Shown here in pieces: positions 21,001 through 24,000 of a stretch of 64,000 nucleotides of DNA. Source of the DNA: a virus (taxonomy: Duplodnaviria; Heunggongvirae; Uroviricota; Caudoviricetes); IMG/VR virus record IMGVR_UViG_2721755660_000001; one strand, written 5' to 3'. How positions within the stretch are numbered: the first letter of the stretch is position 1; each line of letters opens with the position of its first letter. Made by a program: the position numbers.

Positions 21001-24000
21001 GACAGGAGGCCAGCATGCAGACTAAGAAGGCAGCGGCCGGGCATTGGGGGCGAATTTTTGAATATTACGGCATGCCTCCTGTTACTGGCTTGAAACATTA
21101 TAGCGGCCCCTGCCCGATATGTGGTGCCAGAGGTAAATTTCGCTGTGATGATAAGGATGGTTCCGGTTCATGGATTTGTGTCTGTGGTCACGGGGACGGG
21201 ATGAAGTTGTTGCAACTTGCCACGGGTAAGCCCTGGGTGACGTTGTGTGATGAAATCGATCGGCTGATCGGAAATACCTGGAAGAGGGAGAAAGTCAGCC
21301 AGCCTGTAACAGAGATAAGCAGAAAGCGGGAGCTGGTCATGGATAAGTTTGCCGGACTCCCGTGTCTGCGGGGCACAACAGGTGAGGCGTACCTGCAGGG
21401 GAGGGGAATACTCCAGTTACCGACCGAATCCGTGCGTTTTTGTGACCGTCAGATCGCCAGCGGGCGCGAATATCAGGCAATTTACGCCATTGCAACAGAT
21501 GACAGAGGTTCTCTTTGCTATCTGCATCGTACGTTGCTGGATGGTGATCGCAAGGCGAATGTAGAGGCGGCTAAAAAAATGACCGCGCTACAGGAGTTGC
21601 CTGGTTTGCAGCATGCCAAATCGGTGGCAATACGCCTGTATCCGGTGTCGTCCACTCTGGGGATAGCCGAGGGTATCGAAACTGCGCTTTCATGCCGTCA
21701 AATCTTCCGCTGCAATGTGTGGTCAACAATGAACTCCGGTTTTATGGAGAAGTTTATTGCGCCACCAGGCGTTAATCACCTGATTATCTTTGCAGACAAT
21801 GATGAGCACGGCGCAGGTCTGGCGGCTGCCTTTAAATGTGGGCATAAGAATCTCATGAGTCGTAATGACGTTGAGAAGGTCAGCATTCGCTGGCCTGACT
21901 TGCCGGATTTTAACGACATGCTCATTCAGGGGTGTGAAGCCCGTGAACATGTGTTGACGCGCAAATTCAAAGCGGAGGCTGCCTGATGGAAATAGAGATG
22001 ATCAAGGCGGCTAATGGCGTATTTGTACCGGCGTATGAGCGCGATTTACCCCGACTGGCAAAATTTAAAAACGGTGAGCTGTATACACTGGAAGCAAAAC
22101 TTACCCGTAACCCATCTTTTCACCGGAAGATGTTCGCTTTTCTTAATTTCTGCTTTCAGTACTGGTGCGCTGAACATGCTGGATACGAATTCTCTGATGA
22201 AGCGACGCAGTTTGATGAGTTTCGTAAAAATCTGACAATTCTTGCCGGGTTCTATGATGTGGTCACAACCATAAGAGGCGAGGTGAGATATCGGGCAAAA
22301 AGCCTGAGTTACGCGAATATGGATCAGGATGAGTTTGAACGTTGCTACAACGCAATGATTAATGCCGCGTTAAAACATGTGTTCGGGCGCTCAAACAATC
22401 CTGAACTGAATAACCGCCTGCTGTCGTTTTTCTGAGGTGATGATGAAGCAACGTAAACCAAAAAAATGCAAAGTGTGCGGCTCCTCGTTTGTGCCGTTCC
22501 GCTCATATCAGAAAGTTTGCTGTGGTCAGTGCGCACTGGAACTGGTCAGAAAAGAAAAGGCGATAGCTTCAGCAAAAGAGCAGGCAGACAAGCTGAAAGC
22601 GCGCAGGAGGGACTTACAGCCCCGCAGTTACTGGATTAAGCAGGCACAACAGGCTGTGAATGCTTATATCAGGGAGCGGGACCGTCATTTGCCGTGTGTT
22701 TCATGCGGGACGTTCGATTCAGCCCAGTGGGATGCAGGCCATTACCGTACAACAGCTGCGGCACCTCAGCTCAGATTTGATGAACGCAATATCCATAAGC
22801 AATGCGTGGTGTGTAACCAGTACAAAAGCGGAAATCTCGTTCCGTATCGCGTCGAACTGATTAACCGCATCGGGCAGGAAGCAGTAGACGAAATCGAATC
22901 GAACCATAACCGCCATCGCTGGACTGTCGAAGAATGCAGGGCGATCAAGGCGAAGTATCAGCAGAAACTTAAAGACCTGCGAAACAGCAGAAGTGAGGCC
23001 GCATGACGTTCACAGTAAAAACCATTCCTGACATGCTCGTTGAGGCATATGAAAATCAGACCGAGGTAGCCAGAATACTGAACTGTAGTCGCAACACGGT
23101 CAGAAAATATATTGGCGATAAAGAAGGCAAACGGCACGCCGTCGTCAACGGTGTCCTTATGGTCCATCGTGGATGGGATAAGGGTAAAGACTCTGATGCG
23201 TGATATTCAGCAGGTGCTTGAACGCTGGGGCGCATGGGTGGCCAATAATCATGAGGATGTGAGCTGGTCGCCCATTGCCGCCGGATTTAAGGGGCTGATC
23301 CCGTCAAAGGTTAAATCACGGCCTCAGTGTACCGATGACGATGCGCTGATTATCAGCAATTGCATGGCGCAACTGAACGTCAACAACAGCGATTTGCATG
23401 ATTTTCTGTATGATTATTATGTGTTCGGGATGACGCTTATGTCACTGGGCCGTAAGCATGGGCGCTCTGATTGCTGGGCCGGGCGGGTACTGCAAAAAGC
23501 AGAAGGTGTTATTGAGGGGATGTTGATCATGCAGGGAGTAAAGCTGGAAATGGACAGGTACGTTGAGCGTGAACCATCAGGATCACAGGCCAGTCAGTTT
23601 GCCGGACGTGCGGGAAATTGAAAGCGCGAGTTTTTACTGTAGAATAGCTGCGGGTGCTTGAGGCTGTCTGCCTCGGGCATGCAGCCGTAAGGCAGACAGA
23701 GAAAAGCCCCAGTTAACATTACGCGTCTTGCAGGACGCTTAACATTAATCTGAGGCCAAATCTATGACTTACAAACTTAGGTTAGCCTCTTACGTGCCGA
23801 AAGGCAAGGAGAAGTAGGCTATGAAGCAGCAAAAGGCGATGTTAATCGCCCTGATCGTCATCTGTATTACCGTCGTAGTGATAGCACTGGTAACGAGGAA
23901 AGACTTCTGCGAGGTACGAATCCGAACCGGCCAGACGGAGGTCGCTGTCTTCGTAGACTACGAATCTGAGAAGTAAGAGACCAGGCAGGGGAGTAATCTC

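Follow-up and report, generated by a model that had tools for sequence, protein, structure and literature searches.

One question raised by the genetic organisation of lambdoid prophages is how accessory genes inserted next to a regulator come to be coupled to, or remain independent of, the transcription which that regulator controls. The locus considered here poses this question in a direct form, since a hok/gef-like toxin gene lies immediately downstream of the antiterminator gene Q. An earlier note had tied the toxin to Q-dependent late transcription, taking a promoter-like TTGAAA-N16-TAGAAT in front of it for the candidate late promoter. The window, by which we mean the whole stretch of DNA analysed, comprises 64,000 nucleotides of a virus of the Caudoviricetes (IMG/VR record IMGVR_UViG_2721755660_000001). 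The two genes concerned are:

23196-23621, plus strand: antiterminator gene Q, 141 aa (Pfam Phage_antitermQ, PF06530, 162 bits)
23821-23976, plus strand: hok toxin ORF, 51 aa, with its SD sequence GGAG at 23808-23811

The 51-codon ORF, described earlier as nearly collinear with Gef/RelF, indeed encodes a Hok/Gef peptide. It covers the Pfam HOK_GEF profile (PF01848) from end to end (positions 1-42 of 42) at 77.2 bits, the cutoff being 22 (E 7e-22), and shares 47 of its 51 amino acids with HokW of phage 933W/Sp5 and 43 of 51 with HokD (RelF) of K-12, while scoring below the curated cutoffs of the NCBIfam Hok models (51 bits vs 73). The spacing of some 200 bp from Q was likewise correctly given, the Q stop codon (23619-23621) lying 199 nt before the hok ATG. 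For the homologous HokW, toxicity and an inner-membrane location are known (PMC8621323).

The RNA encoded around this ORF has the following predicted elements:

23652-24046, plus strand: predicted hok mRNA of about 395 nt, which begins at the conserved 5' end, extends slightly beyond the fold-back element and has no clear terminator at its 3' end
23652-23663, plus strand: tac-like element GGGUGCUUGAGG at the 5' end, pairing partner of the 3' fold-back element
23664-23699, plus strand: leader hairpin with a 10-bp stem (23664-23673 with 23690-23699), present in the Rfam consensus structure and in the MFE fold
24026-24039, plus strand: fbi (fold-back-inhibition) element CCUCAACGCACCCG, invariant among copies and complementary to the 5' end of the mRNA

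The Rfam family RF01794 matches 23652-23826 on the hok strand over the full length of the model (positions 1-157), with 118.4 bits against a gathering score of 59, and model position 1 aligns at 23652. This 'sok' match was considered as the antisense gene itself and rejected, being on the hok strand and ending at the hok AUG. Because in 933W the model again matches the strand opposite to the annotated sokW, the match marks the hok leader. The MFE fold of the 395-nt mRNA has a z-score of -6.1, and in both the MFE and the centroid folds the tac-like element, which is invariant in all five copies compared, pairs with CCUCAACGCACCC (24026-24038). The hairpin pointed out in the earlier note is real and represents the conserved first stem-loop of the hok leader, its stem having 10 bp and not the 9 first counted. 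A terminator scan and a fold test downstream of the hok 3' end found no significant terminator past fbi and 24046; hokW in 933W is likewise without one, yet it works. Pfam, Rfam and the homology to hokW thus concur in the identification of a hok/gef-type type I toxin gene.

The antisense RNA which such a gene was expected to have is found by homology, at positions that match the experimentally tested sokW:

23772-23702, minus strand: Sok RNA homologue of about 71 nt, transferred from the sokW annotation of 933W
23807-23779, minus strand: Sok promoter, with -35 TTGCCT (23807-23802), a 17-nt spacer and -10 TAACCT (23784-23779)

The sokW coordinates of 933W were carried over to the window with an offset of 21138 and no indels. 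The resulting RNA folds with -30.8 kcal/mol (z = -5.2); its 5' tail, which covers the mok start codon, is single-stranded and is followed by a long hairpin and a U-rich tail extending to about 23696. Its promoter is weak (7/12 vs the consensus) and was missed by the promoter scan, but the promoter block is invariant in all copies compared, and its -10, which reads TAGGTTA on the hok strand, is the hexamer mutated in the promoter-less sokW construct (primers YO-421/422). Mutation of this hexamer abolished antitoxin function, hokW-sokW being a toxin-antitoxin system of type I by experiment whose antitoxin activity needs the sokW -10 (PMC8621323). A convergent Sok with a promoter of its own at the mok translation start is accordingly predicted here on homology and structure only, and the toxicity of Hok and its neutralisation by an unstable Sok alongside a stable hok mRNA, known only from the 91%-identical hokW/sokW (PMC8621323), are putative for the window.

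Between the leader and the toxin lies a further reading frame:

23764-23817, plus strand: mok-type leader ORF of 17 codons in frame with hok, preceded by the SD sequence GAGG at 23752-23755

This frame runs past the hok SD and is ended by a TAG (23815-23817) downstream of it, 3 nt before the hok AUG. The corresponding codon is CAG in mokW of 933W and in two other Q-linked lineages, in all of which mok is full-length, and TAG in a copy from the nin region of C311. The exact 61-mer containing the TAG occurs in 17 of 4583 matching records and is hence a rare variant.

The cassette does not end with hok, since the DNA that separates it from the resumption of phage homology encodes a restriction-modification (RM) pair:

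24151-27875, plus strand: rest of the inserted cassette, comprising a Type IIG/IIB REase-MTase and a Type II specificity subunit
24151-26721, plus strand: Type IIG/IIB REase-MTase ORF (PADLOC REase_MTase_IIG, 771 bits; Pfam N6_Mtase)
24160-24669, plus strand: tract of 73 x 7-nt repeats at the 5' end of the REase-MTase ORF (TRF)
26781-27875, plus strand: Type II specificity subunit (PADLOC Specificity_II, 72 bits; Pfam Methylase_S)

The Q protein of the window has 73% amino acid identity to that of H-19B and a distant match to Q21 in the PDB, but its C-terminus departs from 933W Q after ...MDRYVERE, and its last 15 or so codons (from about 23577) are not homologous to 933W Q and run into the DNA upstream of the hok cassette. 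Homology to the Q gene of 933W stops at about 23576 and resumes at about 27866, where a remnant of the former 3' end of Q is found. From these boundaries hok/sok and the Type IIG/IIB RM pair form a moron cassette of about 4.3 kb (~23577-27865), by which the 3' end of a 933W-like Q is interrupted. Here hok/sok is fused to Q, providing a new Q C-terminus and placing a -35 inside the stop codon, and is linked to a putatively repeat-switched restriction enzyme. The 7-nt repeat number and the reading frame vary among relatives; literature searches for a restriction system of E. coli phages controlled by 7-nt repeats returned nothing specific, and a PDB sequence search with the REase-MTase gave no match. 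Of 5426 complete E. coli genomes 28 contain the Q-hok junction, as does phage PhiR12_3, and the order Q-hok-RM-pR' is kept in all five relatives examined. Outside the 28 genomes with this Q allele the junction segment (23574-23655) was not found in a search whose E-value limit very short matches fail, so that the remodelled -35 may be more widely spread. Literature searches for a described linkage of Q and hok yielded nothing specific. The Q-proximal site brings the insertion slots of hok/sok in lambdoid prophages to three.

In front of hok there is a single promoter-like site:

23618-23645, plus strand: hok promoter, with -35 TTGAAA, a 16-nt spacer and -10 TAGAAT (10/12 of consensus in the scan)

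This is the sole plus-strand site detected within 23400-24300, the promoter scan as a whole giving two sites against 0.7 +/- 0.9 expected, which is weak evidence by itself. Other hok loci have a homologous -10, the hexamer being the same in 933W, in C311 and in two further Q-linked lineages, and the promoter lies 6-7 nt 5' of the conserved hok mRNA 5' end at 23652. The -35, which contains the Q stop codon TGA, and the spacer are remodelled relative to the canonical cassette by a 10-nt indel, TGCGGGAAA being common to both further upstream. The promoter is kept in three Q-linked lineages.

Comparison with known systems places the locus within its family. Window positions 23639-24046 are 91.4% identical, over 408 nt without indels, to hokW-mokW-sokW of 933W/Sp5, with the same Sok promoter and -10, hok -10, SD, tac and fbi elements, and both cassettes reside on lambdoid (Stx-type) prophages. 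They differ in position, the window cassette following Q directly, 5' of pR', whereas hokW lies near the right end of the 933W prophage, past the tail genes; in the -35 and spacer of the hok promoter, remodelled in the window where they overlap the end of Q; in mok, which in 933W is a 70-codon in-frame extension of Hok; and at many positions in the Sok 5' tail and mok start region. The hokD genes of K-12 Qin and of the C311 nin region belong to the same Hok subfamily, are prophage-borne and lie on the same strand as Q, but upstream of it in the nin region, whereas the window copy is downstream. K-12 hokD matches the window only over 23806-24043, from just 5' of the hok SD to fbi, and is without promoter, mok start and sok; the C311 copy, which has the same mok TAG, possesses a clean terminator past fbi that the window lacks. 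With hok/sok of plasmid R1 the locus has in common the Hok peptide and the mok leader frame, as well as a predicted convergent Sok over the mok start, the 5'-3' fold-back and the conserved leader structure (the RF01794 match of 118 bits). The R1 system is plasmid-borne and acts in post-segregational killing, its mok and hok lie in different reading frames, whereas those of the window share one, and its hok has a terminator past fbi. At the peptide level HokW-type toxins are only about 44% identical to R1 Hok (PMC8621323). Judged by homology, the window locus is a genuine hokW/hokD-type hok/sok type I toxin-antitoxin cassette, an ordinary member of the family in an unusual position.

We consider it likely that the hok/sok cassette, inserted with the RM pair in the 3' end of Q, operates independently of Q and works in the manner of R1 and hokW. 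In this model the hok mRNA would start near 23652 from its own sigma-70 promoter, the -35 of which overlaps the Q stop codon, and the full-length RNA would be kept untranslatable by pairing of its 5' end with the 3' fbi element. Sok (23772 to 23702) would anneal to the leader where the ribosome-binding site and the start codon of mok lie and so block translation of mok, to which that of hok would be coupled. Were Sok lost through prophage curing, transcription shut-off or prophage induction, ribosomes would translate the short mok across the hok SD, stop 3 nt before the AUG and initiate Hok, which would enter the inner membrane and collapse the membrane potential. On induction early pR transcription, reading through Q, would traverse the cassette sense-wise.

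The proposal that Hok is instead made in Q-antiterminated late transcription has to be weighed against the late promoter that the window contains:

27883-28170, plus strand: late promoter module pR'-qut-terminators (promoter and terminator scan, alignment with annotated 933W and H-19B)
27883-27910, plus strand: pR', TTTACA-N16-TATCAT, part of the module
27923-27928, plus strand: pause/qut-like TACATT at +7 of pR', matching the qut annotated in 933W
27941-27966, plus strand: first terminator of the module
28140-28169, plus strand: tR' of the module

By location TTGAAA-N16-TAGAAT does resemble a late promoter, as it begins inside the Q stop and overlaps the 3' end of Q with the same geometry as pR' in 933W, and its conservation in the three Q-linked lineages could be read in the same sense. 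Yet 27883-28170, the counterpart of the StxS sRNA region in Stx phages, is a near-identical, full copy of the pR'-qut-terminator module of 933W, H-19B and Sp5, in which pR' and tR' of Sp5/Sp15 have been mapped 258 nt apart by dRNA-seq and Term-seq (PMC7547250). It lies 4.26 kb 3' of Q, where pR' of 933W overlaps Q, beyond hok and the RM genes, and each of the five relatives examined has it in this position. With pR' of 933W, H-19B and Sp5 the hok promoter has no sequence, pause element or terminators in common: 23600-23720 has no similarity to pR' of 933W or H-19B, no TANNNT occurs within +1..+40, and no plus-strand terminator which Q might override is predicted between 23645 and 27941. The region transcribed from it is, moreover, the conserved hok leader, found also in loci far from any Q. 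The promoter that the earlier note described thus exists, as the promoter of hok; as a late promoter it is rejected, and we regard Q-dependent synthesis of Hok as highly improbable. The wiring of the toxin to Q is accordingly not supported, hok lying outside the Q-dependent late unit, and if hok is coupled to phage development at all, this would be through early (pR) read-through. The same promoter could, if the hok transcript were not efficiently terminated, serve mainly as the lysogenic promoter of the downstream RM genes: no significant terminator intervenes between 24046 and the REase-MTase start at 24151, the scan shows no other strong plus-strand promoter before 24151, and the segment 24047-24150 is kept together with the hok cassette in all Q-linked lineages. 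A consensus scan can miss promoters, however, transcription could end at a weak hairpin with a U-run (~24061-24105), the 3' end may be set by the 5'-3' fold-back and the U-rich stretch behind it, and hokW in 933W equally has no terminator with no such genes downstream, so that this function for the promoter seems to us distinctly unlikely.

The model of a Q-independent, functional cassette has also to accommodate the mok TAG. A silent copy, in which this nonsense codon prevents translation of Hok as do the mutations in most K-12 hok loci, is rather doubtful, though several observations speak for it. Beyond the rarity of the TAG, five premature mok stops 5' of the hok start are loss-of-function in R1, where synonymous changes close to the hok SD were enough to block translation (PMC9841398); because of these R1 data toxin translation in this lineage may be reduced, weakened or lost. 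Likewise, the four amino acid changes from HokW all fall within or adjoin the membrane helix, six non-synonymous nucleotide changes standing against two synonymous (counted from the alignment), and hok is frameshifted in one Q-linked relative, a Stx2b prophage; both would fit relaxed selection. The four substitutions are, on the other hand, conservative hydrophobic exchanges, the Hok ORF, Sok promoter, SD, tac and fbi are all intact, and the same TAG variant persists in the unrelated nin-region copy. Since mok translation in R1 is needed only up to the hok SD and start region and is dispensable beyond the start (PMC9841398), a TAG lying 3' of the SD could be harmless, and its spacing of 3 nt from the AUG would favour termination-reinitiation. 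A functional cassette might, in turn, assist lysis. N-antiterminated pR read-through would then occlude the Sok promoter and raise hok RNA, and Hok would appear early in lytic growth to give faster lysis and phage release as reported for hokW. We view this extension of the model, in both its parts, as a tentative possibility. Mitomycin C causes loss of Sok RNA from hokW-sokW and RecA-dependent production of HokW, which appears about 1 h before the endolysin, and the locus doubles phage release (PMC8621323); in the window hok has the same orientation as Q and no terminator is predicted to separate the two, and hok is co-oriented with early transcription in the three contexts examined (the window, the C311/Qin nin region and 933W, in which pL would reach hok across attP). 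Three contexts are few for this co-orientation, the mok TAG may limit Hok output, and the cause of sokW loss was not established by Takada et al. (PMC8621323). The more general notion that hok/sok is placed in lambdoid prophages such that N-antiterminated early transcription crosses it sense-wise, from pR here and in the nin region and from pL across attP in 933W, occluding the Sok promoter on induction and turning Hok on before holin, we hold to be unlikely. If true, hok/sok would serve to accelerate lysis, wired to induction, and not as an addiction module, and the RecA-dependent loss of sokW RNA would be explained.

A Stx2b-converting prophage is among the members of the prophage family in which the late promoter is displaced. 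The natural mok-nonsense variant could serve to find out to what extent hok depends on mok translation. The main value of the present analysis is nevertheless one of correction: the toxin is genuine, yet it is not wired to Q-dependent late transcription, and the true late promoter of this prophage family lies 4.3 kb 3' of Q, behind a defence/addiction cassette. Models of late-gene or Shiga-toxin control built on the Q-proximal sequence of these phages would consequently pick the wrong promoter.

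Downstream of the antiterminator gene Q lies a hokW/hokD-type cassette, the toxin of which is in itself no surprise to specialists. The product of the 51-codon ORF, which the earlier note had likened to Gef/RelF, covers the whole Pfam HOK_GEF profile (77.2 bits, cutoff 22) and is identical to HokW of the Stx2 phage 933W at 47 of 51 positions and to K-12 HokD (RelF) at 43; exactly this copy is labelled 'Hok/Gef family protein' in RefSeq. The differences from HokW are four conservative substitutions in or beside the membrane helix (L16I, I19V, T21I, L29F). The reported gap of about 200 bp measures 199 nt from the Q stop codon to the hok ATG, the promoter-like TTGAAA-N16-TAGAAT is found at 23618-23645, and the hairpin is likewise present, its stem being of 10 rather than 9 bp (23664-23673 with 23690-23699). 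In an Stx2b-converting relative (E. coli 04-00955, L005 7626-7782) hok is frameshifted by one extra T and mok, the leader frame, is full-length. The parts listed here, as read from the sequence, are shown or transferred by close homology.

Features of the Q-hok-pR' region (window positions)
23196-23621, plus strand: antiterminator Q (Pfam PF06530, 162 bits)
23618-23645, plus strand: hok promoter TTGAAA-N16-TAGAAT, 10 of 12 consensus positions
23764, plus strand: mok start, transferred from the 933W annotation
23821-23976, plus strand: hok ORF, product MKQQKAMLIALIVICITVVVIALVTRKDFCEVRIRTGQTEVAVFVDYESEK
23772 to 23702, minus strand: Sok homologue (antisense RNA), transferred from the 933W sokW annotation
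23807 to 23802 (-35 TTGCCT), 17-nt spacer, 23784 to 23779 (-10 TAACCT), minus strand: Sok promoter, transferred from 933W
27883-27910: pR', TTTACA-N16-TATCAT
27923-27928: TACATT
27941-27966: first terminator of the pR' module
28140-28169: second terminator (tR')

The segment 23639-24046 is 91.4% identical to hokW/mokW/sokW of 933W and VT2-Sakai over 408 nt without indels (megablast, phage genomes), and the 933W annotation was carried over by an offset of 21138. The antisense RNA that had been expected but missed, Sok, is thereby identified by homology together with structure. The Sok promoter block is unchanged across all five hok cassette copies compared, and its -10 in the window is exactly the element whose replacement gave a promoter-less sokW construct without antitoxin activity (Takada et al., PMC8621323). 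In the fold of the predicted Sok RNA (-30.8 kcal/mol, z = -5.2) the 5' tail, which covers the mok start codon, is unpaired and is followed by a long hairpin and then a U-rich tail. For the predicted 395-nt hok RNA (23652-24046) the fold has z = -6.1, its 5' end GGGUGCUUGAGG pairing with CCUCAACGCACCC at 24026-24038 in the MFE and centroid structures alike; hok mRNAs are characterised by such 5'-3' pairing, known as fold-back inhibition. A full-length match to Rfam RF01794 ('sok'; 118 bits, gathering score 59) at 23652-23826, ending at the hok AUG, was rejected as the antisense gene, since it is on the hok strand and in 933W falls on the strand opposite the annotated sokW; it thus marks the conserved hok mRNA leader. 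Elsewhere, in the early-left region of the lambdoid prophage (14260-14447, minus strand), the Rfam models for C4 antisense RNA and isrK match with 79 and 65 bits; these are antisense elements of the P1/P7 type by which an antirepressor module is controlled.

Cassettes of this type are nearly ubiquitous in E. coli, a cassette-containing query matching 4690 of 5426 complete genomes at a median of 2 places per genome, and the 61 nt around the hok start matching 4566. Among the five cassettes variation clusters at 23757-23778 (Sok 5' tail, mok start), where 13 of 20 positions differ, with a second variable spot at 23680-23690, in the loop that caps the first leader hairpin; the stretch 23780-23860, which takes in the Sok promoter, the hok SD and the N-terminus of Hok, hardly varies. 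This two-spot pattern would fit diverging Sok-target recognition between cassettes coexisting in one genome.

The proposal that the sequence ahead of hok is a late promoter, tying the toxin to Q-dependent late transcription, did not hold. The -10 TAGAAT is common to 933W, the nin-region copy of E. coli C311 and two other Q-linked lineages (relatives with the cassette after Q), and lies 6-7 nt upstream of the conserved hok mRNA 5' end, which makes TTGAAA-N16-TAGAAT the hok promoter. A 10-nt indel upstream of the -10 separates the window from the canonical cassette: the canonical TGCGGGAAA is kept 10 nt further off, and a new, better -35 (TTGAAA) at 16-nt spacing includes the Q stop codon. Of the four features that define a Q-dependent late promoter, three are lacking; no TANNNT pause element occurs in +1 to +40, and no similarity to pR' was found. 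The actual late promoter is found 4.26 kb beyond Q, within a near-identical copy of the 933W module of pR', qut and terminators at 27883-28170, and hok is upstream of it, outside the Q-dependent unit. In Sp5/Sp15, mapping by dRNA-seq and Term-seq places the homologous promoter and tR' 258 nt from each other, and they yield the StxS sRNA (PMC7547250).

The Q gene, preceded by those for NinG and NinH, encodes a protein 73% identical to H-19B Q and closely matching 933W Q until the last ~15 residues, which are unrelated. Part of the coding sequence for this replaced C-terminus was once DNA upstream of hok. The pR' annotated in 933W overlaps the Q end, and in the window ~30 nt of the original, 933W-like 3' end of Q survive as a relic directly upstream of pR' (27866-27882). 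Given this relic, the pR' module and the dissimilar hok promoter, ~23577-27865 is an insertion in the 3' end of a 933W-like Q, comprising the sequence for the new C-terminus of Q, the hok/sok cassette, a repeat tract and two restriction-modification genes, for a Type IIG/IIB REase-MTase and a specificity subunit. The order Q, hok, restriction-modification pair, pR' recurs in phage PhiR12_3 (from ECOR13) and four E. coli chromosomes opened, one an Stx2b prophage, and the junction 23574-23655 in 28 of 5426 genomes, each time with this Q allele. PhiR12_3 is an induced phage with the same Q, and a Q of this type can therefore probably do without its final ~17 residues.

Within the insertion, the REase-MTase (PADLOC, 771 bits) and the following Type II specificity subunit occupy 24151-27875. 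The tract at the 5' end of the REase-MTase ORF (24160-24669) holds 73 copies of the 7-nt GACCAGC, through which the ATG at 24151 stays in frame; four relatives have 82, 16, 81 and 30 units, all out of frame, the 16-unit tract being that of 04-00955. The pattern looks like a prophage restriction enzyme being switched ON and OFF by repeat-driven phase variation, and a literature search found no paper on it. A leftward terminator-like hairpin with a T-run (24072-24087, minus strand) lies past the 3' end of hok and ahead of the restriction gene, with no apparent leftward transcription unit needing it. Beyond the insertion, 27883-28580 holds the full 933W/Sp5-type pR'-tR' region, a homologue of the StxS sRNA, along with the three tRNAs (Ile/Arg/Arg) that are typically seen in Stx phages. 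No stx genes follow in the window; the slot before the holin holds a TerB-domain ORF (28754-29185) and an STnc100 match (29412-29610), and in the sister prophage of 04-00955 stx2b.

In this subfamily mok is in frame with hok, and in the window it ends at a TAG (23815-23817) in place of the CAG of 933W and two sister lineages. The exact TAG-containing 61-mer occurs in 17 of 4583 matching records, 3 of them labelled hokD instead of Hok/Gef; the one opened (C311) is an unrelated nin-region hok copy. Mutagenesis of R1 indicates that ribosomes have to translate mok as far as the hok SD, not past the hok start; premature mok stops upstream of the hok start caused loss of function, and even synonymous changes near the hok SD stopped translation (PMC9841398). 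The TAG is located past the hok SD (GGAG, 23808-23811), 3 nt ahead of the AUG, a spacing which should permit termination-reinitiation at hok. The window has no clear terminator after fbi, the 3' fold-back-inhibition element; C311 has one, and functional hokW also does without. The Hok substitutions, the frameshifted hok of one relative and the missing terminator fit relaxed selection or uncertainty, and we consider it unlikely that the window copy is translationally silent.

By analogy with R1 hok/sok and hokW/sokW, hok would be transcribed constitutively from its own promoter, the full-length RNA being silenced by 5'-3' fold-back; Sok would pair with the leader across the ribosome-binding site and start codon of mok, and loss of the short-lived Sok would lead to Hok synthesis and membrane depolarisation. 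The hokW-sokW locus is a demonstrated type I toxin-antitoxin pair with an inner-membrane toxin; after mitomycin C sokW RNA vanishes and HokW is made RecA-dependently, and the pair brings growth arrest ~40 min earlier and doubles Sp5 release (PMC8621323). Since Q and hok share a strand and no terminator is predicted between them, early pR transcription making Q mRNA should cross the cassette in sense on induction. Such read-through could occlude the convergent Sok promoter, an attractive candidate explanation of sokW loss. In three contexts, the nin-region copies (C311, K-12 Qin), 933W and the window, hok is sense-oriented to early transcription; 933W has a minus-strand int at its left end, and in the circular form of its genome transcription from pL would therefore run through attP to hokW.

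Of the features by which the hok/sok family is defined, the locus shows those that were tested, with the exception of the mok leader frame, cut short here by the TAG; it is a hokW/hokD-type cassette joined to the end of Q, a third position for such cassettes in prophages. The useful outcomes are the relocation of pR' and a natural mok-stop variant.
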